Notes under the pieces: model-generated
Database searches by the model: none
What the model was told of the DNA's origin: nothing
The model's input: only the letters and a program-made list of their open reading frames with translations
Origin: a virus
Reading direction: 5' to 3' (one strand)
Length of the DNA: 64,000 nucleotides
Virus record (IMG/VR): IMGVR_UViG_3300042154_000876
Location: 11,584-75,583 of that record
Translations under genes and position numbers: made by a program
Shown: positions 1 to 28,768 of the stretch, one piece after another
Layout: each line of letters opens with the position of its first letter
How positions within the stretch are numbered: the first letter of the stretch is position 1

Positions 1-1
1 A

Positions 2-3931: not shown

Positions 3932-3945
3932 CCCCTCAGGTTTAT

Positions 3946-4023
3946 TGGTATACTTGTAAAAGACTAATCAATCGCGATAGTTACCCCGTTAATTTGACAA
4001 CTGCTAATTGACGGGGTATTATC
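3946..4023 (+). promoter_or_regulatory. SigA-type promoter(s) overlapped by an inverted repeat
   Basis: TTGACA (3994-3999)-17 bp-TATTAT (4017-4022); extended -10 TGGTATACT (3946-3954); arms TACCCCGTTAATT / AATTGACGGGGTA. Confidence 0.65.
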
Positions 4024-4051
4024 AAGGTGTTACGTTTCTATAAGGACCAGT

Positions 4052-4315
4052 ATGAAAATCTTTGTTGACACCCCCGAGGGCGGAAGCCTCGTTGAGATTG
4101 AAGTCTCCACACTAGAAGATGACAGGCTAAACACGCTTGCCGCATCTGGATCTAAAGAAGCGCGCGACGAGGTTAAAAAGCGTACCGGTATGGATCCATA
4201 TAAGCCTGTTTCTGAGCACACACCCGAAGACGTCGAATACTACATGGAGTGGTTAAAAAATAACGACTCTGAAAAATACAATAAAATTGTAGGTAGCGAT
4301 AAGGACGTTGAGTAG
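4052..4315 (+). CDS. Small acidic hypothetical protein (paralog A)
   Basis: AAGGA RBS upstream; aligns with next ORF. Confidence 0.8.
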   Translation: MKIFVDTPEGGSLVEIEVSTLEDDRLNTLAASGSKEARDEVKKRTGMDPYKPVSEHTPEDVEYYMEWLKNNDSEKYNKIVGSDKDVE

Positions 4316-4604
4316 GACTATGGAAGACAACTACGAAGAATACCAAGTAGACATGCATGTCATCACTGCTAGTGGTGGCAAGGATTTGAAGTTCCAGCTT
4401 AAGGACCTTACCGACGAGGAGCTTAATCAGCTCTATGAAGAGACTGGACTAGAAGAAGCCCGCCTCGCTTACCGCGAGCGTACCGGTGATGATCCAGCTA
4501 AAAACCTATGGATCTATGGACCAGAAGACTTTGCGTGGTTCCAGGACTGGTGTGACCGCAACCCAGAAAAGTTTGAGAAGTTGCGAGCCCAGTATGACGT
4601 TTAG
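4308..4604 (+). CDS. Small acidic hypothetical protein (paralog B); alternative ATG at 4320
   Basis: Shares LN.L..G..EAR....RTG.DP.K....PED....W...N.EK pattern with 4052-4315. Confidence 0.8.
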   Translation: MSRTMEDNYEEYQVDMHVITASGGKDLKFQLKDLTDEELNQLYEETGLEEARLAYRERTGDDPAKNLWIYGPEDFAWFQDWCDRNPEKFEKLRAQYDV

Positions 4605-10600: not shown

Positions 10601-13600
10601 ACGATCTAGGGCTTTCCCGTGACCACCAAAATGCACTGTTCGACCAGATTAAGCAAATGACTCGTGGTGAAGCCGCCAGGTTTATCAGCACTTTCATCGA
10701 AGCCAATCCGCTACCTAAGCCTAGCGCTAAGCCTTCCATTCAAAATAGAGTACTAGATCTGAATCAGGTCACTAAAAACATCAAGAACCTTGAAAGACTT
10801 AAGTCTCAACCGCTTCCTTCCGCTCTTAGGGATATGGGCACCGTCCCGACCGATACTGAAGAAAAAATACAACACTTTAACAGGGAATTCTCTGACTTCC
10901 TAAAGAAAAAGTACCCGGACCTAACTCTTGGTGAAATCTGGTCATCTAGAAACAGCAATATCGATGTCGAGAAAGATTTTAATTACTTCTCTGATTTATA
11001 TCAAAAAACTATGTCTCTGCCCGATAGTAAGGTTTTTGGTATTGGTAACGCCACTATAACCGCAAAAGACGGCATCCTAAGCAAGCGAGACTTGGCAATA
11101 GTGTCTAATGCCTTAGAAGTACTACAAGAGAGATTCTCTCTAGGCGAGACCCCTATTGATGTCCGCTATATGCCTCAAGAAGAATTAGACCGTCTCGCTG
11201 AAAAGAAGAATGTAACAGGGTCTGCATACATCGATGAAGACGGTGCGCACATAATTATTTCTGAGCGGACTCTTGGTGTCTATGAGAAAGACGGTAGGAG
11301 CGGTAAGACTGGGTCAGTGTCCGCTCACTTGGCTACTGTGATCCATGAGTACGGTCACCTAGTTCATGCACTACTACTAGGGTCTAATTTCACAGAAAAA
11401 GAAAAAGCAGACCTGGCTAAAGAGTTCCAACGTAGATTCAAAAAAACTAGGGTCACTGATTACGGCGAAACTAGTACTGCTGAAAAGTTTGCCGAACTGT
11501 TCTATGACATGGAATACAGCAGAATCGAAGGAACTGAACCTGCAGTTCCAGAGTTTAGCGAGTTTATGGAGTCCATTAAGGGTCGGAAGGCTGCTATTAA
11601 GCCTTCCCTGCTTAACAGGATGGGGATCAAGAAGCCTCAGGCTCGACAAATGCCCCCTGAGAACACCAAGCCAGAGTTTGATGGAGCCACCAAGCTTTCT
11701 GGTGCTAACCTAGCCGCGTTTGAGGGATCCTCAGACAGCCTGCGCGGTAGTGACCAAGAGGCTGGCTACATCCCGGACCCTAGTGATCAAAAAGCTTTTA
11801 ATGAGTTTAGACTTCAGATAAGTCTTAACCCTGGCGATCTAGTGTCTGAGGCGCAAGCGCGTATTAGATTTAAGAAGGAAATCGAGAAGGCTAAAAAAGA
11901 CGCCCGACGCTACGAAGTACTTAAAGTTGAAGGCACAAACTCCTACATCCGCTACAAGAACGGAGACGCTTCTCCAGAAGCCATCCAGCAGACGATTGAC
12001 CAGCTGCGTGACCTGGAAGACTTCAACGTTGCTGGCGGCATTTCTCAGGTTGTAACCTTAGCCAAGCGCGAAACCTTCTCTGTTGGAAGACTATTTGCCA
12101 CAACGCAGGGGACCGAAGAGGAGATCCATGGATACTCTCTTCTAGATTCGGATAAGGGTATTGGTCACATTGTTGTTGACCCTGACTTAGTCTCCGAGTC
12201 CCCTGGCTCTGTACCTGGAATCGCTGTAGGACAATACTACGCTAATGGTGGCGTTGACGCTCAGAATATGTTGAAACGCACCTTGGTGCACGAGTATGCG
12301 CACAACTGGGCTAAAGTGATTCTAGGACACCGCCAACAAGACAGCGCAAGATTTGATGAGTTTGTTCGCAGTGTAGTTCAGAGAATCCAAACTTCGGGTG
12401 GGAGAAGTGTCCACCCAATCTCGGAGATTGCCGAGGGTGGAGACGGTGAAAGCTTCGCTGAGTTCTTTACGGCCGCCTTCTTCCAGATTGTTGAAGGCCG
12501 CATGCTCCCTACTAAGGGATCTCCGCTTGATCAGTTTATTCAGTTCTTTGCTAAATATGCTGGAGCCAACGTTGAGCCAATCATTAAGAACATCAGCCCT
12601 ATCGTTCAGGTTGAAGAGTCGTCTTCTGGCGGACAACGACTAAAGTTCCCTAAGAACCATGAGGGAGCTGGGTCAGAGAATGTCTACCTAGAGTACAACC
12701 GACGCAGAGAGTTCTACCGAAATGGGCTAGATCCTTACGGACGCCCACTAAGCGATGCCCGTGCGGCAATGATTCGCGAATACAGCAGCTACATCGATAA
12801 ACTAGAGTCTGCGTACCAGTCCACCATGCGCGCTGAAGACTTCGACGTTATGACTTCAGCTATGGCGGCCCTAAAACGAGTCTATGATTCGATGTTCTTT
12901 GCCTACGCTAAGAATAACTCCAGATTCAATGTAGACACTATTGGTGAGAACATTGAAGCTAATGAACAAAGCTTCCGTAGCTGGACAGCACCTACTTCCC
13001 CTCTATTCTTACCTGAATCTGAGGGACCTTTCAAGAATGAGATAACCACCGGACGCTATACAGACGTCGACGGTATTTCCTATCCGCTTGTATACATCTC
13101 TTCGACTAAGGCAGATGGTCGCACCTATACAGCTACAGTTGCTCTTGACCCAGAGAACACCGACTTTGACCTTGCCACTGCCAATATGGACACCCTAATT
13201 GAGGCATCTGTTGGAAAGATGATAACCATATCGGACAAAGAAAAGACTAGCCAGATTCTTGACTACATCTCGGTTGACGGTGACCTACGTCACAGGGGCA
13301 TAGCCACCTCTCTTCTATCCTTCACTAGAAGCAACACAACTAAGAAGGTTTTGCACAAGGGTAAGTCTGCCCCGGATGTTTCAGCTTGGGCCCAGTCGGT
13401 AGATAGTTCTGAAAAGTCCTACGAATCCGCTCCTCGTGCGTTTGACGATGCTTCTCACGTTGCTCGACACAACCGCAACGCTATCAACCTAATCTCTGAT
13501 CGCGAGCCGCCTCAGGAGATCGACACGTCTTCAGAGACCTTAGAGGCCGAGGCGCTACACTATGCGGGGGAAAACTACGGAAACTTCTATCACCCTAACT

Positions 13601-16600
13601 TGCAGGACTACATGTCTAAGCAGGGTGGCGGACTTGGTGTCTACAACTCTACAGTTGGTTATGTCTCAGCTGAGACTCTCAGTTCGATGCGCGGCAATGA
13701 GCCTAAAGATCCGGACAGCGTGGCTCGCAAGGTTGAAGACCTACAGGACGGCGACGGATTCGACCAACCGGTAAGCGTCGTCTATAACCCTCGCACCGGT
13801 GAAGCTTATGTAGCCGACGGTAACCACCGCGTCCAGGCTTCGCTAGACGCTGGCGTTGCTTATGTACCTACAAGAGTCTTTATCATGGATGTTCCTCCTG
13901 CACAGGAGAACCCACAGATTAAGAAGTTGGAACGCGATGGCGGTCTACCTCTACCTGAGGGCGCAGATGAAGTTCACCCATACTTTGTCTTCAATAAAGA
14001 AGATCTAGTTAATGGAAAAGACCTATCTGACCCTAGCGTTGTTGAAGAAATGGCTTCTAACGTTGTTGTTTGGTCTGGTCGCGGTAAGGCTTCCGAGCGC
14101 AACCGCTCCGGAAGGTATGACCCAGACCCTAACAACATCTTTGAGCAGCTTGCCCCAGGCGAATACGTTATGGACAAGAAGACCAAAAAGATTTATCAGG
14201 TATACAGCCAAGACTTTACTACCGAAGTAGGCCAAGACGGTGTAGAAAGAGCCGTATTCACCGGGAAGATTGTTGTCCGAGAGTTTGAAGGCAACTTAGA
14301 TAACCTATCTAGAGTAAGAATCTCGACGCAGTTTGGCGATAACAATATCCGCTACGCTCAGGGTGGACAATCCTCTGCCGACGATTCATATAATGACGCT
14401 CGCTCATATATTGACGAGATTCGCGACCCAGCGGACTTTGAGAATGTTACTGACTCGTTTATAAAGCTCAGTGACCAGCCTATCCTTATCAGCGATACGA
14501 TGTACGTTGTTCAGACCGAGACCGGTATCAAGGGTCGAATCTCTAAGTTTGTCTCTCCTGGAGTAGTTAGACTTGATGTTCTAAAGGGATATAACGAGGA
14601 CGGCGAACCTCTCTATGATCAGATAGAGTCCCCGATAACCCAGCTTCTACCTATCCAGAACCAGCAGCAGGTCCCTAATGGACAGCCTGCTATGGAGCAT
14701 GCCCCTGATATGCAAATATCTAACTCTACCTGGGACTCGATCAACACCTTGTCCTCTACCCTGTTGAAGTGGGGCTACCTATCAGAAGATAAGTACAAGG
14801 CTATTCAGACCCTAGTTCACGGTAAGTTTATTACCCAAAGCGGTGCTCTGGACCTTGAGCGTTCGCTCAGAAACCACGACGTAGTTAGACGAGCAAAGAT
14901 TCGTGGCGTCGCAGTGAAGTCACCTGCCACTGGAGAACCTGTTGCACAGGCGCCTGTACAGCAAGCTGCCCCGTCTGCCCCTGCCGCGCCTTCAGTTGGC
15001 CAAGGCGAGGCCGGAGGTCGCTCATTTGAGCAGCTCCTAGAAATGAAGCGTGCTCGTAAGAAGGCAGATGCCGGGCTATCTGTAGAAGAGTTTGCATCTC
15101 CTGTCACAAAGATTAAGGTAACTAAGAACCCTCCTACCCAAAGCCAGATTCTAGAAGTAGAGCGTCTTCTTTCTGAAGACGGTGCGGTAACCCCGCAGCG
15201 TGCATTTGATATTCTATCTTCACTACCTACTCTAAATGCAGAAGCCACCGAAGCTGTACTAGAAGAGATCCGAGCAGATGTTCTCAACAAGAGGATTTCT
15301 AAGGATGAAAGCATCACTGGTCTTGTAGTTCCTAAGGGCTTTAATAGATCCAAAATCTCTGGATACCAGCCAGCCGTTGAGGAATCATCTACCGGCTTTG
15401 AGATCGATAGAGATGCGGAAGAGCCTAATGAAGACGGAGAGGTTAGCCCAGGAGCGAAGCCAGAAGAAGAAGGTCCTAAGATGTCGTTCAATGCTCAACA
15501 GAAGTCAGCTATTGACTCTGTAGTTAGCAGTGAAGGCGGCCTATTCTTTATCACTGGTGGTGCTGGTACTGGTAAGACCACTATTAAGAAGGAAATCGAC
15601 AAGCGCGAGAAGGCCAAAAATAGAAGGACTATGACCATTGCCCCTACGGGTAAGGCAGCCCTTCAGGCAGAGGGAGCTACCATCCACTCTACGTTCAAGA
15701 TTCCAGTAGGCCCTTTAACCGATTTTAGCCCGTCCGAGACTTACAACAAGAATATGGGTACTGCCAAGGGCCGTAAATCTATGGCTGCTTTGCGCACGGC
15801 AGACACCATCTTCATTGATGAAGTTTCTATGGTTCGAGCAGATCTGATGGATGCTATGGACAGGATGCTTAGGGTTGTCAAGGGAAACATGTCTGAGCCT
15901 TTTGGTGGAGCTAAGATTGTTATGCTTGGAGACTTGGCTCAGCTTCCTCCAGTAGGTATTGACTCTAGCCCTGAAAACCAGGGACCTCGCCAGCGATTCC
16001 AAGAGACTTATGCTGATGACTACTTCCTAAGTGCTAACTCATGGGCATCTTCGGCGTTTGAGGTTCACAACTTGACTGAGTCTATGCGTCAAAGCGCAGA
16101 GGATGATGCCTGGTTCGAGCAGTTCCTAAGGGAGAGGGCTCGATTCGCTGAGGTGACTCAGGAAGACATGGAGAAGCTGTGGGAGATTAGCGAAAAAAAC
16201 CGCAAGCGTGATGCTGAAGAGGGTGTCACATCCGAGCCTATCCACCTGGTGTCTACAAATGCTGCCGCAGACGAGATCAACAAGAAAAAGTTTGCTGAAC
16301 TTGAGGGTGAAGCAGTTAAATTTACTGCTACCATTGACGCTCCAGAAGGCTCTGACATTAAGCCGTTTGTTCGAAATGGCGGTCTACCTAAAGAGGAAAT
16401 GGAATACAAGATCGGTGAGCCGGTAATGTTTATCAAGAACGATGACGCACAGCAGCGCAAATCTGCTGGAGGCAACCTTCCGAACGAGTCCAGATGGGTA
16501 AACGGAAGTCAGGGCGTAATCACAAGATTTGAATATGCTGAAGGCGAAGATGGCCAGACCCCTATTGCTATCTATGTAAAGATTGGCGACAAGGAGCACC

Positions 16601-17370
16601 GAGTAGTTCCTGCCACATGGGAAGATGTAGAATACGGCGTATCTACCAAGATTGAAGAAGAGAAGAACATCGTTGAGGGACCTACTCAAGAAGTTTTGTC
16701 TACCTATACTCAGATTCCTTTGATGCCAGGATGGGCTATGACTACCCACAAGTCTCAGGGAGCCACTATGGACTCAGCTGTGGTCGACTATTCGATTAAG
16801 TACTCTGATAATGGAGATATTCTCACTCAAAATAGCCCTTTTGCTGCTGGACAGGTCTATGTAGCACTTAGCCGACTACGTAGCTCGAATGGTCTCTACT
16901 TGACTAGGAAGCTAAATAAAAATGACTTTATTAGAATCGAACGTAGCGTTACCGATTTCTTCAAGAATGTTGATGCTCAGACAGCCGCTAACCAGGTCTC
17001 CGAAAGTTCCGCTCCAAAGAAGTTTGACCCGCTAAAAGGATACATTTCTGAAGTAGATCTTGCTTCAGCCCTAGACAGCGGGGAACTCACCGGACCAGCT
17101 GGCCAGAACCTTACGGACTACCAGTCCACCGCTATCAAGAACAAACTCCGTCTGATGCGTGAAAATCCTAATAGTGCTGATCGTTATAGAGAAGAAATTG
17201 CTAAGCTAATGAACTCTTGGTTTGGTGTCGAGGAGCCTGGAGAAGAGATCCCTGCTGTAGCTGCCCCCATTGAGATCCGCATGGACAACTTCCGCGACCC
17301 GTCGGAACGTCAGGCCACAATAGACCTACTTACTAAGAGTGGTATTCCCTACACTTTGAAGTACGATTAA
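4594..17370 (+). CDS. Giant polyvalent protein (~4258 aa): SH3/KOW-like repeats, DEDDh exonuclease, two zincin peptidases, GNAT, ParB-like, Pif1/RecD helicase
   Basis: FDTETTG/QNVPFD/HSADAD; HEYGH and HEYAH each with downstream E..AE.F; LRHRGIATSLL; DGNHR; GGAGTGKT, DEVSM, GDLAQLPPV, HKSQG, YVALSR. ATG 4594 preferred because it overlaps the upstream stop. Confidence 0.9.
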   Translation: MTFSPLFFEDPEEPIVAAALKNGKEWGYWADMQLRDPGGERGGWFIEMGGLNLFNGMGKDGKVRAYKGKYIGPSPLGQGYGRFLVEGGDGVDPGIYHVNVSNIDSVKGVLSEEYLRSLGRDVPAQKEGIVDLSKTRIDPITEQDLQDANIEPDKPKNLKKAANDRGQSAKKLKDLKDGDILYDEGNKRFGEVVSTVDKDGNFSPWVKWEDNQISQIPNADPETETAVWAAPAPEVDESAAPKKTVKGRDLKVGDVIRAWDENRTITAIEPGRGGERYFIFDTPDEGEDGPDGKFININEDVELGREEAPVAPAAPVAAEKTKSNKVSASEVKKGDSVVINGETYTVSKKSNKKADGVVIGHKIEFRAEDGSTFEEEFLSDDTLDIPAAETATKEEKKTPRGVLTSFVKNMQPGDVLIAGKDDKRQEVLFVSAEPIPPVDNNDIRKRYNITVQRADGGLETIAVDATNGIPQLAETNAKGKTEKVNRKDQLKVVPSAPATTTTKTTRTTTKTAGDEAGTTTTTTPRVRAPEVIPTTPMSTNPGDTGEVVRGVNYEIMPDGRIKFSRGRLKKGSRSYDLITKVLPGEITRSGNGKAFAFFEKPEGGDYGNWFVRFEPIKDSKKDLAKQFLDSLRAGMAKEKVESSEETGSSFSGAKNTKGSITDAASYEVDENGTVKISGLTEEQVDLVVQAMYTVQGTTPLDRPGSVSTKVDSDKDEDRAAVLKAVSDALGGTPAATTTTTTTTPDFDSLPKTKADPEAARKAGFTVDNVKPVDIQVGDYIISPVGYWTKVVGEPSIIPDPRNPGEIAWAIPTENYKGERFTQDGLGDLNLRIDRVRGPNHVDTPETADEAFDKESAPFPMDTLRDLKEGIYAKVDGMWKKITKVGKPQIDPSVDTESVVIEFEDGTKKRVDERDGLTLVRKVPEGEATSTATTTTEGLTTDQRLAKLLFLVKGSGSEDAAWNASIMGDARRSLEAAGIDENDFLDYAEKSGASDLRQPDLDKLIEKYKADKGSTTTTATTTEESDKPTDEQRKTIDDLIAQIGDETNFTSKIVTAMLDSLTKESADMAIDMLKAAIANTTAPTTTTAPAQSVFTPGQIDSVNRRINLLTPEQQAKVKEAMESATPKTAKDIMSKIINTLDNAEIISRIRKGMPVDDILARRKTDTVGANLLFDLDRSPKEIAQRLATYKPTVNLDGTPIADAQQTTTTVSGDDTKSVSSLISDVIDSLAKDLQTKFGALKYRYSSKTPQNAEQAEKDHEIYLEYLSTVVPAVMQALKERLDSQTAAGNPDAQKNYDDAVSKLKQELWGQNRGAVYTSEAEKLVGSDRTKEMSDEANKALNDLLAGVKKPEKQVTTETTTKDTFGKIGTSGNLTGNVDYSIDKFGQIALTNAPEDFDARMAESRGLIIVTDNGKKSIVLTKNNDENRAAALNLIKERLEGPAPVTTKVETQTEVAQDVVTGQERPEGGVSKKISELNVGDRLYDEETESMATVVGVYEDPDRAGRIVLTIRFDDGREDSASYKKSYVVEAYPSPEAPAATTTTAEDVVGGEDADTSKTEAEVVEDSQVIVEQGESTTAEPGSTVLEEPDAEAVEPVEPKRKPRGPRKPRKVNLSDVSDEEREAFIRIFDALENFNRVEEEYGGKKYDSKWYIDEKDRKFDNKDVEELASQNTKGIGEDLGIQLMDSTTDAYEPGAFSSTRQPTPGAFTGRVARMVEGKTKAETRNILKGLKVSWFDTETTGISNFDGDPTNNDVVQVGIVNTQNGEVLERLNIYINPGVEDGVRLGKWATNNLVKDAVGEDGQPILGPDGKPTTEPITNEWLSEQMSIADAVQQIMDFMGRDPILGGQNVPFDLQVLQRMLDKAGVRGYRIGGTIDSKDLSEEFLPKYNEYEGTDGPKRFDKERNKFVPTSSLGYVAEFLGFGTTRWHSADADAEDAWKLASATMDRAASEDPTGTSDLMNQSAMRSRYTERMAKFLKTIDPRNPSTAKQHGAVRKEGFGEYLDDLGLSRDHQNALFDQIKQMTRGEAARFISTFIEANPLPKPSAKPSIQNRVLDLNQVTKNIKNLERLKSQPLPSALRDMGTVPTDTEEKIQHFNREFSDFLKKKYPDLTLGEIWSSRNSNIDVEKDFNYFSDLYQKTMSLPDSKVFGIGNATITAKDGILSKRDLAIVSNALEVLQERFSLGETPIDVRYMPQEELDRLAEKKNVTGSAYIDEDGAHIIISERTLGVYEKDGRSGKTGSVSAHLATVIHEYGHLVHALLLGSNFTEKEKADLAKEFQRRFKKTRVTDYGETSTAEKFAELFYDMEYSRIEGTEPAVPEFSEFMESIKGRKAAIKPSLLNRMGIKKPQARQMPPENTKPEFDGATKLSGANLAAFEGSSDSLRGSDQEAGYIPDPSDQKAFNEFRLQISLNPGDLVSEAQARIRFKKEIEKAKKDARRYEVLKVEGTNSYIRYKNGDASPEAIQQTIDQLRDLEDFNVAGGISQVVTLAKRETFSVGRLFATTQGTEEEIHGYSLLDSDKGIGHIVVDPDLVSESPGSVPGIAVGQYYANGGVDAQNMLKRTLVHEYAHNWAKVILGHRQQDSARFDEFVRSVVQRIQTSGGRSVHPISEIAEGGDGESFAEFFTAAFFQIVEGRMLPTKGSPLDQFIQFFAKYAGANVEPIIKNISPIVQVEESSSGGQRLKFPKNHEGAGSENVYLEYNRRREFYRNGLDPYGRPLSDARAAMIREYSSYIDKLESAYQSTMRAEDFDVMTSAMAALKRVYDSMFFAYAKNNSRFNVDTIGENIEANEQSFRSWTAPTSPLFLPESEGPFKNEITTGRYTDVDGISYPLVYISSTKADGRTYTATVALDPENTDFDLATANMDTLIEASVGKMITISDKEKTSQILDYISVDGDLRHRGIATSLLSFTRSNTTKKVLHKGKSAPDVSAWAQSVDSSEKSYESAPRAFDDASHVARHNRNAINLISDREPPQEIDTSSETLEAEALHYAGENYGNFYHPNLQDYMSKQGGGLGVYNSTVGYVSAETLSSMRGNEPKDPDSVARKVEDLQDGDGFDQPVSVVYNPRTGEAYVADGNHRVQASLDAGVAYVPTRVFIMDVPPAQENPQIKKLERDGGLPLPEGADEVHPYFVFNKEDLVNGKDLSDPSVVEEMASNVVVWSGRGKASERNRSGRYDPDPNNIFEQLAPGEYVMDKKTKKIYQVYSQDFTTEVGQDGVERAVFTGKIVVREFEGNLDNLSRVRISTQFGDNNIRYAQGGQSSADDSYNDARSYIDEIRDPADFENVTDSFIKLSDQPILISDTMYVVQTETGIKGRISKFVSPGVVRLDVLKGYNEDGEPLYDQIESPITQLLPIQNQQQVPNGQPAMEHAPDMQISNSTWDSINTLSSTLLKWGYLSEDKYKAIQTLVHGKFITQSGALDLERSLRNHDVVRRAKIRGVAVKSPATGEPVAQAPVQQAAPSAPAAPSVGQGEAGGRSFEQLLEMKRARKKADAGLSVEEFASPVTKIKVTKNPPTQSQILEVERLLSEDGAVTPQRAFDILSSLPTLNAEATEAVLEEIRADVLNKRISKDESITGLVVPKGFNRSKISGYQPAVEESSTGFEIDRDAEEPNEDGEVSPGAKPEEEGPKMSFNAQQKSAIDSVVSSEGGLFFITGGAGTGKTTIKKEIDKREKAKNRRTMTIAPTGKAALQAEGATIHSTFKIPVGPLTDFSPSETYNKNMGTAKGRKSMAALRTADTIFIDEVSMVRADLMDAMDRMLRVVKGNMSEPFGGAKIVMLGDLAQLPPVGIDSSPENQGPRQRFQETYADDYFLSANSWASSAFEVHNLTESMRQSAEDDAWFEQFLRERARFAEVTQEDMEKLWEISEKNRKRDAEEGVTSEPIHLVSTNAAADEINKKKFAELEGEAVKFTATIDAPEGSDIKPFVRNGGLPKEEMEYKIGEPVMFIKNDDAQQRKSAGGNLPNESRWVNGSQGVITRFEYAEGEDGQTPIAIYVKIGDKEHRVVPATWEDVEYGVSTKIEEEKNIVEGPTQEVLSTYTQIPLMPGWAMTTHKSQGATMDSAVVDYSIKYSDNGDILTQNSPFAAGQVYVALSRLRSSNGLYLTRKLNKNDFIRIERSVTDFFKNVDAQTAANQVSESSAPKKFDPLKGYISEVDLASALDSGELTGPAGQNLTDYQSTAIKNKLRLMRENPNSADRYREEIAKLMNSWFGVEEPGEEIPAVAAPIEIRMDNFRDPSERQATIDLLTKSGIPYTLKYD

Positions 17371-17463: not shown

Positions 17464-20400
17464 ATGAGTGATTCAGAAAAAGACCCTATGTATTTGGGAA
17501 ACTCTGGATCCCTTGCGCTCTTTGCGTTAGGTGAGAAAGCCGTAGTAATTGATACTACCCACAACTTAGTTGTAAAATCTGGCACTGTTTCTGAACTCTC
17601 CGCATCTAACGACTGGGACGAGAGTTCTTCAGAGCAAAGTGCCGTAAGCCTGGAACTAGCTAGCGCATCCTTGATTGACCTAGACATTAAAGTTGTTACA
17701 GCGGGTGGATCCAGTAGGATGTACACCATTCCTAAGGGTGCAAAAGCTGAAGCTGAAAAAGCACTTGAATGGCGAAAAGAAGAAAAGCGTGGCGGCACTC
17801 CCGTTGGTTTGAATACTGCTCGCACGCTTGCACGCGGTGGGCAGATCGGAATCGAGAAGGTTCGCCACATTGCCAAGTATTTCCCTCGTCACGAAGTTGA
17901 CAAAAAGGGTAAAGGCTGGAGACCAGGCGAGGATAACTTCCCTAGCAACGGCCGTATCGCATGGGCACTTTGGGGTGGGGACGTAGCATGGCGCTGGGCT
18001 CAGGCCATTGTTGAGCGTGAAGACAAGAAGCCTAGAACTGCTTCAGTAGCCGGGCCAGACCTAGAGTCTTTCAATAAAGCTATGAATTTGGACTATGCCT
18101 CAGCACCAGAGTTCCTAGTTCGTGTTCGTATGGATGGTTCTGGAATAGACCGACTATATAAAGTTGACCTAGACGGCTCAATCTATGTTTGGGATGACGG
18201 CTGCTGGGATGACCTGGGCAGTATTCAGGGCGATGTCTATGTATATGACAAAGCACTAGACGACCCATATGACCTAGTTGAAAAAGCTCACGTTCCTATT
18301 GACCCGGACTCAGCCATTATTGTTGCTGCGAAACAACACCAGAGCCCTGATCGCTACATCTCTGTTGCAGAGATTGACGCTGAAGAAGCCGCTCTAACTA
18401 TGTTTGCTGCAAACGAACTTGACTGGAAGTTCATTGACTACACGATGACCGCTGCTGGCGTTAATCCAACCGACAACATCTATAGCCCAGAAGAGCGCTC
18501 TCAGAATGCAACCGCTCAGAGACGCAACACAGGTGGTAGGTTTGCTCCTCAGGGTAGCAAGTCCGGCGCTTCCGCTCAGCCTAATGCTGTTGGAAGTCAG
18601 GGCGGACAGCTTGAAGACTCTCTACCTCTCACCGACTTTGACCAGCCTCTAGATGTCTCTGGAATCCTAGGTGAGCCACGCACTCCTATTGATCAACCTT
18701 ACGCTCAGCTGGACGGAACCCTGCCAGCAATGACAAAGGACGATCTACATGACGTTCTTTACAACTGGCCAGCTTGGGTCCAGGAGCAGCGTTCATCTTT
18801 TAAGCCTCTTGCTGCTGCAGGCTCTGAAGAAGAAAAACCTGAAGAAACAGAAGAGCCTGAAGACGAAGAAGTATATAACCACCCGCTGTTAAAGCGTTGG
18901 CGTTTAAACACAAAGCGTCGTAAGGATGACCAGCCTAATAGTGATTGGGCTAGTCCGATCGTGGCCGCGCCTGTCGCATCGAAATCAGAAGCAGTAAAGT
19001 CAAAGAAACTTACTCCAGAAACTTCAGATGTAAAGCCGCTATATTTTGCGGTTGTTGCAGAAGATGACCCGCGTGCTGTATTGGACCTGATCTCGATTGT
19101 ACCGGCCAGTTCTACTTCTAACTCGCCTATGGCATACAAGCGTGATAAGGGCAAGTGGGTTCGCGATGAGGCTACAATCAATGACCTAAAATCTGCCACT
19201 CCTCCTCCAGTAATCCCTCTAGACAGCAAGACTCTAAACGAAGTTCTTCTTCAGGTAGACGATGCTACTATGACTGCGTCCGGCGTCTTTAGTGTTGACC
19301 ACCTACTCATGGTTTTGTGGGGGCCTCAGCAGGAAATCATTGATACCTACGGCGATGCGTTCTTTGAGGTTGTAGACAAAAACAACGATTTTGACGCCAA
19401 TCTCAAAGCAGTTTTTTCTGTAGTAGCTGCAGGCGGTTTGGACCGTAACAGGGGGCAAGCGGAGAAGCTTCGCAAGTATTGGACCGTCGGTAAGGGTGCT
19501 GCAAAGATCCGTTGGGGGATGGGCGGCGACTGGTCTCGCTGCGTTAAGAACCTATCGAAATACATGGGCCCTCGCTCAAAGGGATACTGTGCCCTCCGCC
19601 ACAAGGAGATGAATGGTGTTTGGACTGGAGACAAACGTCACCGTCAAGTCTATGGTCGCAAGAAGGGTGGGTCACGCGGCCTATTCAGCACCGAGTACAT
19701 TAACTCTACCGCTCAGACTATTGACAATGCTCTAATTGCAGCCAAGGCCGATGATGCTCGCGAGCGTTTCGGTATTGTGGCTACCGGGCTACCTGAGAAT
19801 GGTTCTAAGTTCTACATCCCACTACTCATCCCTGAGGGTATGGAGTCCGGCGATGGTCGAAAGTTTAAGAAGGGCTCTATCACATGGAGAGATCTTCCTC
19901 TACCGCTTTTGTGGCAGATTAAAACTGCTGATGGACATGATGGCTCCGTTGTTGTTGGCCGTATTGACAGCATTGAGCGCGTGGAAGATGGTTTAGGGAA
20001 TGCCTATGGCATGTTCGACACCGGAGCGTATGGTCGAGAGGCAGAACGCCTAGTTCGTAACGGATTTATCCGTGGTATTTCAGCTGATATGGATCAGTTT
20101 GAAGCAACAGAAGAAAAAGAAGACGTAAGCCCAGAAAACTCTGAAAAAGATGATAAGCACGTAGGAAAGAAGAAGATTACTATAAATAAAGCACGCGTAA
20201 TGGCTGCTACAATAGTACCTAAGCCCGCTTTCCAAGAATGCTCTATCACACTAATAGAGGGTGGCTTACCGACTACCCAGGAGGACACTATGATTCCTGA
20301 TGGAATCTATGTAGACGACGTAGACGCTGCAGATGCCGAGGCACTAGTTGCCTGCGGTATGGTTGCCGGCGCTATCCCTGTCGTCCCACCACGCGAGTGG

Positions 20401-21966
20401 TTCGATAACCCACGACTGAAGAAAGCTACCCCGCTGACAGTTGATGACAATGGCCGTGTATATGGCCACATCGCCTCATGGGACACCAACCACATTGGTC
20501 TAGCTTATGGCACTAAACCTCCTCGTAGTCGTAGCAACTACGGTTACTTCCACACCGGTGTTTGCCGCGCCGACGATGGTTCAGATGTTCCAGTAGGTCA
20601 GCTAACTCTTGCTGGCGGACACGCTTCTCTAGAGGCTTCTGCCATGGAAGCGGTCAAGCACTACGACGACACTGGCTCTGCAATCGCAGACGTTCACGCT
20701 GGTGAAGATGCTTACGGCATCTGGGTATCTGGAGCATTACGTCCATCCGCTCAGCCTGAACAGATCCGCGCACTACGCGCATCTGCTCCTTCAGGTGACT
20801 GGCGACCAATCCGCGGTGGGCTTGAGCTTGTTGCAGTTTGTCAGGTAAACGTTCCTGGATTCCCAATCGCTCGCGCTCGTGTTGCTTCTGGTGCTGTTAT
20901 GGCTCTAGTTGCTGCAGGTGCCGCCACTCTAGCTAAACTAAAGGCTGATCCTGTTGCCGAAATGCAGGCTCGAATCAGCAAGCTGGAGCGAATCACTACT
21001 CCGAAAGAAGAACTTGAAGCCCGTGTAGCGTCTCTCAAGGCTAAGGTTGACGAAGCCAAGACCGAGTTTGGCTACATCTCTCGTGATGAGCGTATGAAGT
21101 TGGCTGAAGAAGGCAAAGCCTTAGACGACGGCTCTTACCCGATCCGTGACGTTGAAGACCTTAAAAACGCTATTCAAGCTTACGGTCGTTCGAAAGAGTC
21201 AGACCGCGCTAAAGTTCGCAAGCACATTGAAAAGCGTGCTCGTAAGCTAAACGTCCGTCACCTAGTTCCCGAAGAGTGGAAGACAGCTGCATCTGATGCT
21301 GTCACTGCAAGTGCTGAAGACCTGAAGTCTCGTCTACTTGCGGCTCAGGAGGCCCTGGGAAAAACCTTCGCGGTTGAGGACATGATTCCTGAAGAAGAAG
21401 TAGTAGACCAGATTGTTGAAGACATTGAAGACGGTGCTCCAGCAGTAAGAGGATACAAATTCACTCCAGGAAAGAATCAACCGCGTGACATAGAGGGACG
21501 CTTCCGTCAGGTTCTAGCTCGCTTGAGCCAAGACCTAGGCGACTCCGGTCTACAGGATGTAGTAGAAAAGATTAAAGAAGTAGAAAACATCACAGGTCTT
21601 GGTGACTACTCGGATGCGGCTAAGGCCGGCAGCGAGCTTCTAAACATTCTGGACCGACTAGACGAAGGCTCCCTAAACAAAGTTTCACTAGAGAATGTAC
21701 GTTCAACGGCTGCAGAGCTTGGCAAAGTAATCTCTAATCTACCGCTACCTTTTACCAACCAAGCGCAAAAGGTACGCTTCTCAGATCTTCCTCCAGCACT
21801 TAAAGACCTTATGGAAAATATGGTCGAGAGGGTGGAGAAGAAAATAGGTAAAGATGACGCAGCTGAGGCTACGGAAGAACTGAAGGGCTTTATGTCCGGA
21901 AGTGACCTCTATAGCCAATCGGACATCTCTTCGCAGATGGCTCGAATGCTACGCCTACTTACCTAA
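17464..21966 (+). CDS. Capsid maturation protease multidomain protein
   Basis: Directly upstream of capsid gene; protease-like domain GHDGS..VGRI..GISAD..ATIVPKPAF and a second domain GGHA..GIWVSG..SGDWR..VNVPGFP; extra head-associated modules. Confidence 0.8.
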   Translation: MSDSEKDPMYLGNSGSLALFALGEKAVVIDTTHNLVVKSGTVSELSASNDWDESSSEQSAVSLELASASLIDLDIKVVTAGGSSRMYTIPKGAKAEAEKALEWRKEEKRGGTPVGLNTARTLARGGQIGIEKVRHIAKYFPRHEVDKKGKGWRPGEDNFPSNGRIAWALWGGDVAWRWAQAIVEREDKKPRTASVAGPDLESFNKAMNLDYASAPEFLVRVRMDGSGIDRLYKVDLDGSIYVWDDGCWDDLGSIQGDVYVYDKALDDPYDLVEKAHVPIDPDSAIIVAAKQHQSPDRYISVAEIDAEEAALTMFAANELDWKFIDYTMTAAGVNPTDNIYSPEERSQNATAQRRNTGGRFAPQGSKSGASAQPNAVGSQGGQLEDSLPLTDFDQPLDVSGILGEPRTPIDQPYAQLDGTLPAMTKDDLHDVLYNWPAWVQEQRSSFKPLAAAGSEEEKPEETEEPEDEEVYNHPLLKRWRLNTKRRKDDQPNSDWASPIVAAPVASKSEAVKSKKLTPETSDVKPLYFAVVAEDDPRAVLDLISIVPASSTSNSPMAYKRDKGKWVRDEATINDLKSATPPPVIPLDSKTLNEVLLQVDDATMTASGVFSVDHLLMVLWGPQQEIIDTYGDAFFEVVDKNNDFDANLKAVFSVVAAGGLDRNRGQAEKLRKYWTVGKGAAKIRWGMGGDWSRCVKNLSKYMGPRSKGYCALRHKEMNGVWTGDKRHRQVYGRKKGGSRGLFSTEYINSTAQTIDNALIAAKADDARERFGIVATGLPENGSKFYIPLLIPEGMESGDGRKFKKGSITWRDLPLPLLWQIKTADGHDGSVVVGRIDSIERVEDGLGNAYGMFDTGAYGREAERLVRNGFIRGISADMDQFEATEEKEDVSPENSEKDDKHVGKKKITINKARVMAATIVPKPAFQECSITLIEGGLPTTQEDTMIPDGIYVDDVDAADAEALVACGMVAGAIPVVPPREWFDNPRLKKATPLTVDDNGRVYGHIASWDTNHIGLAYGTKPPRSRSNYGYFHTGVCRADDGSDVPVGQLTLAGGHASLEASAMEAVKHYDDTGSAIADVHAGEDAYGIWVSGALRPSAQPEQIRALRASAPSGDWRPIRGGLELVAVCQVNVPGFPIARARVASGAVMALVAAGAATLAKLKADPVAEMQARISKLERITTPKEELEARVASLKAKVDEAKTEFGYISRDERMKLAEEGKALDDGSYPIRDVEDLKNAIQAYGRSKESDRAKVRKHIEKRARKLNVRHLVPEEWKTAASDAVTASAEDLKSRLLAAQEALGKTFAVEDMIPEEEVVDQIVEDIEDGAPAVRGYKFTPGKNQPRDIEGRFRQVLARLSQDLGDSGLQDVVEKIKEVENITGLGDYSDAAKAGSELLNILDRLDEGSLNKVSLENVRSTAAELGKVISNLPLPFTNQAQKVRFSDLPPALKDLMENMVERVEKKIGKDDAAEATEELKGFMSGSDLYSQSDISSQMARMLRLLT

Positions 21967-22000
21967 AATCAACAAAACAAAAACAATGTACAATTGTTTA

Positions 22001-22097
22001 TAGGTGGAGTGCCTTCATGCGCCCGTGCATGTAGTCCCTTTACCTTGACCCAAGCGGTGGGAGAAGTACTCCCACTCAACTGTCCTTAGGAGGATCA
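22001..22097 (+). promoter_or_regulatory. Structured 5' leader and RBS of major capsid gene
   Basis: TACAAT at 21989-21994; stems 22002-09/22038-45, 22016-20/22027-31, 22057-63/22069-75; AGGAGG 22088-93. Confidence 0.5.
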
Positions 22098-24137
22098 GTG
22101 GACCAGATCAAGTCGCAGGTTGATAGCCTGTCTGAGCTGAACGACGAACAAGTCGCAGCTCTACAAGAAGCTATCGTAGGCGAGTTTGAATCGTTCGAGT
22201 CCCAGGAGACTTCTGTCGAGTCAGTTGACGCTATGACAACCCTAGCCGATATGCTGGACACCGTCAAAGGTGAAGTTCAGCGCCGCGAGGCAGCTATGCA
22301 GGAGCTCACATCTCGAGCTGCTGAAGCTGCAATGCGTGTAAAGGGCGAGGATGTCCAGGAGGATGGCATGGAGGAAGAAATTCCTGCCGAGCCAGCCGAA
22401 GACATGCCTATGGAAGAAGATGGCGAAATGCCTGAAGCTCCAGAGGTAGTTGAAGAAGCTCCTGCAGAAGAGGACGAGGAAAAGAAGAAGAAAGACATGA
22501 AGTCTTATTCCACCACCGAGTCTGCTGACGCGTCTACTACTGCGATCGAAGGTTCTGAGTTTTCGAACGAAGAAGAAATCGCTGCTGAAACTGTAGTTGA
22601 GGAAGCTGTGGCTGAAGAGCCAGCTGCTGACGAAGCTGTTGAAGAAGCAACCCCAACAGAAGCTGTAGAGCTTTCTGTTGAAACCGAAGAAACCACCGTG
22701 GTTTCGGAGGAGGTCGTTGAGACCGAAGCTGAAGTTGAGACAGAGTTCTCGGCAGAAGCAGAAACAATTGAAACCGATAACGCTCTAGTAGTAGAGCAGG
22801 AAGAGCAGGCCCCCGTGACCGCCGCAGCAGAACAGCCTTTCGAGGCCCCAGCTGACCGTCAGCCTGTACTCCAGGTTTCGGAGCCAGCTAAGGTAGCAAT
22901 TACCGCTGGTGCCGACATTCCTGGCTACACCGCTGGCAGCACCATCAATGACATGTACGAAGTAGCTTCGGCTATGGAAAAGCGTATCCACTCGCTTCGT
23001 CGTGTTAACGGTGGAGATGGAGAGCAGCACATCGTTGCTTCCCTAACCACTCAGTACCCAGAGGAGCGCACCCTCGGAACCAACCCAGAAGAGAACCAGG
23101 CTAAGATTGATGCCGTTGTAGGCCAGGAAGCACTTGTTGCTTCTGGTGGTCACGCTGCACCATTCGAGGTTAAGTACGACATCTACGGTATTGGTTCGAC
23201 TACTGTCCGCCCACTTCGCGACTCGCTTCCGAAGTTCCAGGCTGACCGTGGTGGTGTACGCTTCGTAACCCCACCTAGCTTTGCAGCTGGTACCTACGAC
23301 AACGCTGTTAGCGTATGGACCTCAGCAAACGACTCAGCTGAAACTCCTAGCCCAGCAGCTAAGAGCTCGTTGACCGTTACTGCCGCTGCCGAGCAGACCG
23401 CTCAGACTGACGCTGTAACCTTGCAGCTACAGTTCGGTAACCTAATGACCCGTGCCTACCCAGAGCTAATCTCTCGTCACAACGAGCTAGCTCTAGTTCA
23501 GCACGCTCGTGAGGCTGAAGAGTACCTAGTAAGCAAGATCAACTCAGGTTCGACTGCTGTTACAACCACCAACCTAATCGGTTTTGGTCGTGACTTCCTA
23601 GTTCAGATCCGCCGCGCTGCAGTTGCTTACCGTAGCCGTCACCGCATCGACCCAAGCACTCAGCTACAGGCTGTAATTCCTTTCTGGGTGTACGATGCTA
23701 TGGCTGCTGACCTAACCCTATCGATGCCTGGTGACGGAACCCTTTCGGTTGCTAAGTCAGAAATCGACGGTTACCTATCGCACAGCAACGTTACCATCAC
23801 CCCTGTTATGGACAACACAAACAGCACTTCGCCTTCTTCGGTCTTTGGATCGCAGTCGGCTGCAGCTCTGCTTGAGTTCCCAGACAGCTTCAAGTGGTTC
23901 CTATTCGCTGAGGGTACATTCTTGTTCCTCGACGGTGGTACTCTTGACCTAGGTATCATCCGCGACAGCACACTAGTCGGTACAAACGACTACAAGATGT
24001 TCATCGAAACCTTCGAAGGTATCGCAAAGGTAGGTATCGAGTCTCTCGCTATCACCTCGACCATCTCGATCAACGGTGTTGCTGCTGCACTACGCGACAC
24101 CACAGGCAACACTGCTGCCGCTACTATCGAGCTCTAA
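22098..24137 (+). CDS. Major capsid (hexamer-type) protein with acidic N-terminal scaffold-like region
   Basis: GTG with AGGAGG; LVASGG..APFEVKYD, RGGVRF, LDLGIIRDS..NDY motifs resembling cluster-B actinophage capsids; high-expression codon usage. Confidence 0.88.
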   Translation: MDQIKSQVDSLSELNDEQVAALQEAIVGEFESFESQETSVESVDAMTTLADMLDTVKGEVQRREAAMQELTSRAAEAAMRVKGEDVQEDGMEEEIPAEPAEDMPMEEDGEMPEAPEVVEEAPAEEDEEKKKKDMKSYSTTESADASTTAIEGSEFSNEEEIAAETVVEEAVAEEPAADEAVEEATPTEAVELSVETEETTVVSEEVVETEAEVETEFSAEAETIETDNALVVEQEEQAPVTAAAEQPFEAPADRQPVLQVSEPAKVAITAGADIPGYTAGSTINDMYEVASAMEKRIHSLRRVNGGDGEQHIVASLTTQYPEERTLGTNPEENQAKIDAVVGQEALVASGGHAAPFEVKYDIYGIGSTTVRPLRDSLPKFQADRGGVRFVTPPSFAAGTYDNAVSVWTSANDSAETPSPAAKSSLTVTAAAEQTAQTDAVTLQLQFGNLMTRAYPELISRHNELALVQHAREAEEYLVSKINSGSTAVTTTNLIGFGRDFLVQIRRAAVAYRSRHRIDPSTQLQAVIPFWVYDAMAADLTLSMPGDGTLSVAKSEIDGYLSHSNVTITPVMDNTNSTSPSSVFGSQSAAALLEFPDSFKWFLFAEGTFLFLDGGTLDLGIIRDSTLVGTNDYKMFIETFEGIAKVGIESLAITSTISINGVAAALRDTTGNTAAATIEL

Positions 24138-27839: not shown

Positions 27840-28346
27840 ATGGCGATGGCAGTGGATATTAGTGACATCCATGAGGATGCTCTCAATCTGAGAGATATGA
27901 TGAACGGAATACTTGAAAAGGTATGCTCCGTTTTTCAGTCATATAATATTCCACTGCCTAATCGTCGTTACTGGACAATGGGGACCCCTGTTGTCGACTG
28001 TGATCAGGTCGTGGTCTCCCTAAACTCCCTATACCTAGGCGCTCCAGGCTCTCCAGTAAGTGAGCCTATGCGTTGTAACATGCCTAGAACCGCAACTGTT
28101 ACTATCAGTATTGCTCGCGGTGTCCCTGTTGTTGGCGTTAACGGACGTCCGCCATCAGCAGAAAAAATTGAAGAAGCTTCTTACATCTCGTCCATCGACG
28201 CCTGGGTTCTAATGATGTCCCTAAACTTATTTGACCAGTGGGACGATGGAAGCTACGGACTTGGTGTTATTGCCAACGTTGACGTACTTGAGCCCGAGGG
28301 CGGATTTCAGATTGTCAGCATGGAGCTTACGCTGGCGGTGCCATAG
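27840..28346 (+). CDS. Putative tail terminator/neck protein
   Basis: Synteny; DC.Q..V, PEGG motifs. Confidence 0.55.
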   Translation: MAMAVDISDIHEDALNLRDMMNGILEKVCSVFQSYNIPLPNRRYWTMGTPVVDCDQVVVSLNSLYLGAPGSPVSEPMRCNMPRTATVTISIARGVPVVGVNGRPPSAEKIEEASYISSIDAWVLMMSLNLFDQWDDGSYGLGVIANVDVLEPEGGFQIVSMELTLAVP

Positions 28347-28768
28347 TGGCTAAGGTGAGAATGCAGATCAATACGAGAGTATTGGATCGAGTACTAAACA
28401 ACCCTAAAGGTGAGCTGGGCGTAGAGCTATACAAAAGAGCTAAACGTATGGCTCGCCACGCAAAGAATCAAGCTCCGATTGGGAGCGGTCCAACGGCCGG
28501 AAGACTTAAAAGGTCTATCAAGGTCTATCGTCACGAACGCTACACTAAGGGCCAGACTATACGAATAGGTACATCTGTCTCGTATGCGCCTTATGTCCAC
28601 GAGGGCACTAGACCCCACTTAATCTTGCCTAAGAATCCCGCTGGTGCTTTGAAGTTCGTGCCGAAGGGCGGAACCATGGTTATTGTTACCAAACGAGTCA
28701 AACATCCTGGATCTCGTCCGAATCGCTTCCTCACGGATAATGTAAAATATATATATCTGCCTGGATAG
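28346..28768 (+). CDS. HK97 gp10-like tail completion protein
   Basis: AP..GRLKRSI, YAPYVHEGTRPH, HPG..PNRFL. Confidence 0.8.
   Translation: MAKVRMQINTRVLDRVLNNPKGELGVELYKRAKRMARHAKNQAPIGSGPTAGRLKRSIKVYRHERYTKGQTIRIGTSVSYAPYVHEGTRPHLILPKNPAGALKFVPKGGTMVIVTKRVKHPGSRPNRFLTDNVKYIYLPG

Follow-up and report, generated by a model that had tools for sequence, protein, structure and literature searches.

We analyzed a 64,000-nucleotide window (bases 11584 to 75583 of the 75,583-base viral contig IMGVR_UViG_3300042154_000876) and focused on an open reading frame (ORF) of 1500 amino acids (aa) in its head module. The contig (75.6 kb) represents a phage related to actinophages. The 1500-aa protein appears to be a head polyprotein in which about seven cargo-like modules are followed by a domain of the HK97/S78 prohead protease type (domain A), a second, divergent domain (domain B) and a helical, scaffold-like tail. 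A short motif resembling the cleavage site of herpesvirus assemblin recurs along this protein and in other head proteins of the phage. Based on the present data, we consider it probable that the polyprotein processes itself and that the motif is the general cutting code of an assemblin-like prohead protease with a single specificity, domain B being the core enzyme and part of a nested product that also includes the scaffold-like tail.

The initial annotation of this DNA, made from the nucleotide sequence, had listed 15 copies of the motif, and all 15 coordinates proved to be exact: ten copies lie in the 1500-aa ORF and four in that of the capsid protein, and the ORF for a giant protein has IVAAA at position 4636. 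Written as [VILM][VTA]A[AGSTC], the motif occurs 15 times in the 1500-aa protein, with 2.4 occurrences expected from shuffled sequences (0 of 1000 shuffles reached 15). Its recurrence in the capsid prodomain and at the start of the giant protein was likewise borne out, with 4 copies in capsid residues 1–350 against 1.0 expected. The 22 other ORFs in the window together contain 16 copies against 19.5 expected. Enrichment was seen in all 150 homologs listed (1358 observed, 358 expected). This is not an effect of composition, because the residue order hydrophobic-[VT]-A-small stands far above other orderings: it was matched 809 times in the 150 homologs, the median of same-composition permutations being about 165. 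Of the 24 possible orderings, the three that ranked next were overlapping registers of the same longer motif. The consensus in the 150 homologs was A (43%)-L (55%)-[V 59%/T 41%]-A-[A 51%/S 28%/G 14%]-[G 44%/A 26%]. Its first and last positions (P4 and P2' if the central Ala is taken as P1) had not been used to select the matches and were biased as well, towards Ala (43%) and Gly (44%), respectively. The working consensus is A-L-[V/T]-A-[A/S]-[G/A].

The positions of the ten sites in the polyprotein were compared in an alignment of 39 full-length relatives. Conservation was strong for the sites at aa 328, 603, 653, 961 and 1148, moderate for those at aa 78, 499, 771 and 1280, and weak for the site at aa 449. 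The sites at aa 328, 603 and 653 were kept in 22–27 of the 39 relatives (21–30 when adjacent alignment columns were summed), and the moderately conserved ones in 9–18. Seven of the ten sites (aa 78, 328, 449, 499, 603, 771 and 1280) lie at most about five residues from points at which the 39 relatives carry large insertions, and the motif therefore marks module borders. The view of a modular head polyprotein whose borders carry an assemblin-like motif, already put forward in the initial annotation, is thereby upheld. The same layout was found in six distant relatives, namely the phages A3Wally, Saguaro, ClearAsMud, cyanophage Pam4, and the Gordonia phages Ali17 and GodonK; the mycobacteriophage Saguaro has been named as a cluster B1 phage (PMC9584339). 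In all six of them the double site that separates domains A and B in the polyprotein also precedes domain B, and ALVAAG follows domain B in all distant relatives that were aligned.

The two protease-like regions proposed earlier (~19810–20250 and ~20380–20870) match two confidently predicted beta-rich domains, aa 780–935 (domain A) and aa 975–1137 (domain B). PHROG matches to the head maturation protease and related families extend across aa 786–1212. Domain A on its own scored 22.2 bits against the Pfam family Peptidase S78 (PF04586; cut-off 21, E = 1.8e-4), an assignment that is marginal because the whole 1500-aa protein scored 17.4 bits only. Domain B had no Pfam or NCBIfam match in family-profile scans, and neither domain matched Peptidase_S21 at E-values up to 1, which places both outside family S21 by sequence. 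In domain B, H1010, H1053, H1066 and D1076 are invariant, and H1002 and S1110-G-D1112 (20791–20799) are near-invariant. AlphaFold models built with homolog alignments reached a predicted local distance difference test score (pLDDT) of 85 and a predicted template modelling score (pTM) of 0.80 for domain B alone. For domains A and B together the pLDDT was 85.6 and the pTM 0.52, and the relative orientation of the two domains is undefined because of this low pTM. In VIA-align comparisons T4 gp21 was the best structural match for both domains, with Z-scores of 10.1 for domain A (127 aa, 4.2 Å) and 7.1 for domain B (120 aa, 3.2 Å). The corresponding Z-scores were 9.9 and 6.4 against the protease of varicella-zoster virus (VZV), 7.5 and 4.8 against that of human cytomegalovirus (HCMV), and 6.2 and 3.6 against that of Kaposi's sarcoma-associated herpesvirus (KSHV). 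Foldseek searches with domain B returned almost only herpes proteases from the PDB (E about 0.1) and, beyond its own family, prohead proteases and COG3740 proteins from BFVD (E from 2e-4 to 1e-2, probability about 1). Prohead-protease families (S77/S80, Mu-like_Pro) were also returned from the ESM Atlas with scores of about 0.93, which we regard as leads because few features are shared. The top rows of a Foldseek search of the PDB with the combined A+B model were tandem MCE-domain proteins and were rejected as spurious (root mean square deviation about 25 Å). Both domains share the same order of elements (His, beta-hairpin, helix, Ser-x-Asp strand), and both are predicted to have the T4 gp21/herpes assemblin fold with a conserved His and Ser in each, as the initial annotation had anticipated for its two protease domains.

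The motif also occurs at characteristic places in other head proteins. In the 679-aa capsid protein (22098–24137), residues 1–85 are conserved and helical, residues 85–233 are variable and acidic, and conservation returns at about residue 234. Of 70 close relatives, 46 have kept the sequence EALVASGGH around the last site and most of the remainder have variants of it; in most close relatives it lies 317–324 residues from the capsid C-terminus. An equivalent last site is present in the six distant relatives, and across close and distant relatives this site is 306–349 aa away from the C-terminus. Since this is the size of an HK97-fold shell protein, LVA↓SGG (arrow, predicted bond) is the best-supported mature end. 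The mature N-terminus predicted there by the initial annotation thus coincides with the last conserved site before an HK97-sized core in all relatives examined, and is still a prediction. In A3Wally, Ali17, Pam4, Saguaro, ClearAsMud and GodonK, the portal, MuF, giant and small head proteins have one motif copy 9–60 aa behind their N-terminus; for example, the sole copy in the 1913 aa of A3Wally gp85 is at residue 9, and GodonK gp67, gp70, gp71 and gp73 have it at residues 12–22. In the window, the 4294-aa giant protein matches the motif at residues 23 and 51–52 only, and the 3163-aa giant protein has N-terminal copies at aa 107 and 134. By analogy, such N-terminal placement corresponds to the way in which T4, phiKZ and SPN3US are known to remove propeptides (PMC5694885, PMC10052503), and both giant proteins are possibly packaged into the virion and trimmed at these copies. 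A single-sequence locus search with the N-terminus of the giant protein retrieved one close relative only. N-terminal sequencing has been published for the capsid proteins of the cluster J phages Omega and LittleE (PMC3706429). As a source of termini, Omega gp15 and gp14 were rejected: they have no detectable relation to the capsid protein or protease studied here, so that the cluster J termini do not apply.

The distribution of the motif over head and other genes was further assessed in 80 related IMG/VR contigs with the five-residue form [VILM][VT]A[AGSC][GA]. It was observed 436 times in the polyproteins (17 expected), 244 times in the capsid proteins (17.4 expected) and 0 times in the giant-protein pieces (3.7 expected). 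In five of six other classified neighbours, including the major tail protein and the tape measure protein, the counts were 0.6–1.25 times expectation, and the 168-aa ORF at 27840 had 0 copies with 1.8 expected.

Several observations weigh against the interpretation of the motif as the cutting code of domains A and B. The 80 IMG/VR relatives are close kin (protease identity 65–97%), and their counts are not independent samples. The catalytic His of domain B is ambiguous, with H1053 and H1066 as candidates, and a profile-profile comparison of domains A and B with hhalign was not significant (E = 0.15), a low-stringency alignment that pairs the shared elements being suggestive only. Sequence searches of the PDB with the 1500-aa protein, the capsid protein and the A+B profile found no solved relative. 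The four-residue core of the motif is not depleted in the giant proteins of the relatives (22 observed, 23 expected); a general depletion in these proteins was therefore rejected, the depletion being seen with the five-residue form alone. Two further points concern cleavage itself, namely that the ALVACGMVAG stretch between domains A and B is predicted to be helical rather than disordered, and that a conserved VTAAA copy (aa 427, window 23376–23390) lies within the conserved predicted capsid core. A motif match alone thus does not mean a cut. These last two points would suit a protein that stays whole or is cut elsewhere and in which the motif is a conserved linker or docking element, such as a strand binding to the inside of the capsid, to the portal or to a protease domain; the invariance of ALVAAG could equally be structural. 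We consider this quite unlikely, because propeptide removal would explain why the motif lies 10–60 aa behind the N-termini of head proteins that are unrelated to one another and shortly before an HK97-sized core, because the motif goes together with a protease of predicted assemblin fold and is similar to the site of assemblin itself, and because the sites flanking domains A and B are located in low-confidence, disordered stretches of the model.

With the motif regarded as a cleavage site, we asked which domain goes with it. A search with domain A matched Pam4, ClearAsMud and Saguaro, which served as positive controls, and gave no match anywhere in the genomes of Ali17 and GodonK. In these two phages domain B is nonetheless flanked by the motif, the regions downstream of it are motif-rich, and the capsid prodomains bear the motif. 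Domain B is therefore the likelier cognate enzyme, given that the motif is shared by phages that have this domain but in which no domain A can be detected. Whole-genome scans with the Pfam S78 model were discarded as a test for domain A: they gave no hit in Ali17 and GodonK and are uninformative, because Saguaro, which has domain A, gave no hit either. Domain A keeps its own candidate catalytic residues and is probably active too. The initial annotation had gone further and proposed that two protease domains and two classes of linker motif suggest two specificities. Spelled out, one domain would act on hydrophobic-T-A sites in the cargo linkers and the other on hydrophobic-V-A sites at the protease flanks and in the capsid. 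This would agree with the conserved His and S-x-D of both domains, with the predominance of V at P2 next to domain B (23–37 of 39 relatives) and the tendency of the N-terminal sites towards T, and with the restriction of domain A to the full-length product if an internal start (see below) is used. However, none of the orthologous sites has a fixed P2 residue, as V, T, A and I replace one another there in the relatives, which does not support two motif classes for two specificities. Moreover, the capsid prodomains mix both forms, and LTA as well as LVA occurs in the B-only phages Ali17 and GodonK. This part of the initial annotation was therefore not sustained, and two active domains of different specificity seem unlikely.

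Cleavage of the sites by a host enzyme, or by putative HExxH zincin domains of the giant protein, instead of by domains A and B is very improbable. Processing of phage heads by the host is known elsewhere, as for staphylococcal phage 80alpha and PrsP, but the motif accompanies domain B across phages of Mycobacterium, Gordonia, Microbacterium and the cyanobacterium Pseudanabaena, and small phages without giant proteins (ClearAsMud, Saguaro) carry it as well. As for signal peptidase I, the Leu at P3 is unfit for the small residue that this enzyme needs at −3.

A second start signal is present within the polyprotein gene. A start codon was found at the equivalent place in 76 of 78 relatives (GTG in 49, ATG in 24, TTG in 3), and 74 of the 78 have a strong Shine-Dalgarno (SD) sequence there. 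When the relatives have Val at this position the codon is always GTG, which makes up only 8.8% of the Val codons in these genes and therefore points to a constraint on the nucleotides. In addition, many metagenomic homologs begin exactly at this position. Together, the conserved start codon, the SD sequence and the homologs that begin there make a nested product likely; judged from these signals, it would start at 20290 and comprise a short leader, domain B and the scaffold-like tail. A protease-scaffold fusion with an in-frame nested gene is an arrangement analogous to that of the herpesviruses, the nested product here including domain B. Such a product is reminiscent of herpes UL26/UL26.5 and of lambda C/Nu3.

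The favoured reading of a single-specificity, self-processing polyprotein suggests the following course of events. The motif would be recognized by a prohead protease that the phage itself encodes, and we infer that the cut is most likely made after Ala, as by herpes assemblin (V/L-x-A↓S). Inside the prohead, the protease would free itself at the sites flanking domains A and B and split the polyprotein into about ten pieces. The 348-residue capsid prodomain would be removed in several cuts, the last one at LVA↓SGG, and short N-terminal leaders would be trimmed off the portal and the giant packaged proteins. One degenerate specificity fits these data, and the internal start at 20290 would probably provide domain B and the scaffold-like tail as an additional, nested product.

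Table. Features of the head module. Positions are those of the window; fractions refer to the alignment of 39 full-length relatives.
Feature	Position	Strand	Remarks
3163-aa giant ORF	1-3931, partly beyond the window		UvrD-helicase and DnaG/Toprim primase domains
4294-aa giant ORF	4486-17370		RNase T-like exonuclease and PIF1/Dda-like helicase domains
Putative propeptide border at N-terminus of 4294-aa giant	4552-4650	+	VTAT (aa 23), IVAAA (aa 51; 4636)
1500-aa head polyprotein	17464-21966	+	ORF with SD sequence upstream; cargo-like modules, domain A, domain B, scaffold-like C-terminal part
Site VTAGG, aa 78-82	17695-17709	+	Within 15 columns in 16/39; insertion hot spot at aa 73
Site MTAAG, aa 328-332	18445-18459	+	22/39 (28/39 with adjacent columns summed); insertion hot spots at aa 320-332
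Site LAAAG, aa 449-453	18808-18822	+	Weak, 4/39; insertion hot spot at aa 449
Site IVAAP, aa 499-503	18958-18972	+	11/39; insertion hot spots at aa 487 and 504
Site MTASG, aa 603-607	19270-19284	+	22/39; insertion hot spot at aa 602
Site VVAAG, aa 653-657	19420-19434	+	27/39 (30/39 over adjacent columns)
Site IVATG, aa 771-775	19774-19788	+	Directly upstream of domain A; disordered in the model; insertion hot spots at aa 770 and 773
Domain A, aa 780-935	19801-20268	+	Canonical HK97/S78 type; H825 (19936-19938) and S873-A-D875 (20080-20088) conserved
Internal SD AGGAGG and in-frame ATG (M943)	20280-20292	+	SD at 20280-20285, ATG at 20290; probable start of nested product
Double site LVACG-MVAG, aa 961-969	20344-20370	+	Between domains A and B; LVAC plus hydrophobic-V-A-G/S in 35/39
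Domain B, aa 975-1137	20386-20874	+	Divergent predicted prohead-protease fold (model, VIA-align, BFVD, conserved residues)
Site LVAAG, aa 1148-1152	20905-20919	+	Right after domain B; ALVAAG in 39/39; disordered in the model
C-terminal part, aa 1151-1500	20914-21963	+	Site VTASA (aa 1280) at 21301-21315, VTASA in 18/39
Capsid prodomain, aa 1-348	22098-23141	+	Sites VTAAA (22815), ITAGA (22899), IVAS (23031), LVA↓SGG (23133)
Predicted mature capsid core, aa 349-679 (331 aa)	23142-24137	+	NCBIfam MCP_Sipho, PHROG 777; start set by the putative cut

The head module has the order portal (PHROG 776), 690-aa protein, 3163-aa giant protein, 4294-aa giant protein, 1500-aa protein, 679-aa capsid protein and tail genes. 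The 1500-aa ORF is thus placed between the portal and major capsid genes, which is the gene order of S78 proteases. Among named phages, the closest relatives are the Actinomycetia phage DSL-LC01, assembled from a metagenome, and Microbacterium phages of about 190 kb, such as Pumpernickel and A3Wally, and the gene order is common to all of them. Within the 1500-aa protein, distinct PHROG families were matched at aa 88–191, 663–728 and 786–1212. As in polyvalent proteins, several unrelated domains are combined with an assemblin-like peptidase, predicted from the sequence, in one head-module protein. The profile region downstream of domain B matched helical-repeat and coiled-coil chains only, and the C-terminal part (aa 1151–1500) is probably helical and scaffold-like. 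No match to Phage_Mu_F (PF04233) was found in the 1500-aa protein or its pieces; this MuF domain is present in Pam4 gp13 and Ali17 gp13. A full HMMER search with aa 780–1215 identified 4311 representatives of clusters at 50% identity that share the A+B core, many of them 1300–2350 aa long.

Some further features of the relatives were observed. In GodonK (locus 1303–9890), modules that are fused in the 1500-aa polyprotein are separate genes: gp71 corresponds to the modules at aa 528–599 and 662–734 and gp73 to domain B, and each begins with a leader of 12–22 aa that ends in the motif. The last ~170 aa of the polyprotein form a separate gene in DSL-LC01. The border between the first two 'capsid maturation protease' coding sequences of that phage (16700–16800) falls within a block that is conserved in homologs; we therefore rejected the three-gene split of DSL-LC01 as a guide to module borders, since its first boundary resembles a frameshift (real or an assembly error). 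The polyprotein also contains two copies of the sequence Q-x-R-[DN]-x-x-G-R-F (QRRNTGGRF and QPRDIEGRF, window 18517–18543 and 21478–21504), the first copy about 20 aa past a cleavage-like site, and the separate last gene of DSL-LC01 opens with AVIAAP followed by QPRDAKGQF. This sequence may be a tag on mature N-terminal regions. The protease-bearing head protein gp16 of Ali17 has a region like 2'-5' RNA ligase/2H-phosphoesterase that scored under the Pfam cut-off, and the corresponding gp13 of Pam4 carries NUDIX and MuF domains. A 140-aa protein encoded downstream of the head-tail genes (window 28346–28768) had 5 copies of the five-residue motif with 0.8 expected in 61 relatives, and unclassified plus-strand ORFs of related loci had 40 with 10.6 expected.

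A wider generalization can be offered tentatively, and we regard it as possible rather than likely. In a large, mostly uncultured siphovirus lineage with actinobacterial and cyanobacterial hosts, represented by the 4311 clusters, domain B would share both the fold of herpes assemblin and its hydrophobic-x-A↓S/A specificity. A six-residue code would then set the capsid ends, the propeptides of portal and ejected proteins and the dismantling of the polyprotein, with domain A and the nested product dividing the work. Should the motif prove to be the cutting code, the N-termini of mature capsid proteins and the packaged head proteome could be read from sequence, both for hundreds of actinophages in culture and for thousands of relatives known from metagenomes. 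In a recent structural survey of capsid proteins from actinophages, the cleavage site of the delta-domain was stated to be impossible to predict (10.1101/2022.09.09.507160). The same code would set the propeptides of ejected proteins, including the two giant proteins with their helicase, primase and nuclease domains. There would also be a phage counterpart to three features of herpes assemblin (site preference, protease-scaffold fusion and nested expression), and an assemblin-like specificity of domain B would suggest that this specificity is older than the split between phage and herpesvirus proteases. The arrangement raises the question why two protease-fold domains with intact candidate catalytic residues stand in tandem. 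The prediction is testable in easily grown SEA-PHAGES isolates.

The closest known counterparts are the actinophage 'capsid maturation proteases' and MuF-like fusions (Saguaro gp12, ClearAsMud gp27 and Pam4 gp13), which have a homologous A+B core (32–42% identity over aa 773–1137), a like position between the portal and capsid genes, and a like motif before and after domain B. Compared with these, the protein described here is much longer, with about seven extra modules upstream and about 350 aa downstream, and no MuF domain was detected in it. In the literature searched, which included few subscription journals, tandem protease folds or the cleavage motif are not described, and the actinophage genes carry a functional label only. 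With herpesvirus assemblin (pUL26/UL80a, family S21) and UL26.5, the polyprotein shares the predicted fold of both domains, the fusion of a protease to a scaffold-like region that follows it, a site immediately behind the protease that is comparable to the release (R) site, and an in-frame nested start. The motif L-[VT]-A-[AS] resembles the assemblin site (V/L/I)-x-A↓S (Welch et al. 1991, as cited in PMC5512222). Unlike assemblin, the protein has no S21 sequence match, two tandem domains instead of one, and ten or more sites instead of two; and unlike UL26.5, the nested product would contain a protease domain. T4 gp21, phiKZ gp175 and SPN3US gp245 are prohead proteases that recognize a short consensus in many head proteins; as there, one protease of this fold would remove N-terminal propeptides from the capsid protein, the portal and proteins that are internal or ejected (PMC5694885, PMC10052503, PMC9958956). 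These enzymes cut after Glu (L/I-x-E, A-x-E), whereas P1 would be Ala here, and the predicted protease of the present phage sits within a polyprotein. The polyvalent proteins (Iyer, Burroughs, Anand, de Souza and Aravind 2017, PMC5512222) are multidomain, head-associated proteins that an assemblin-like peptidase is predicted to process. In the parts of that report available to us the peptidase is at the very C-terminus and neither a motif nor a tandem pair is described, whereas about 350 aa follow the peptidase here. For Microbacterium phages, earlier work noted fusions of MuF with a protease as well as giant virion proteins that are probably processed (PMC7302621). Fusions of assemblin-like peptidases to polyvalent and MuF head proteins are thus already known, and the new part is the putative code, the tandem pair of predicted protease folds and the nested start.

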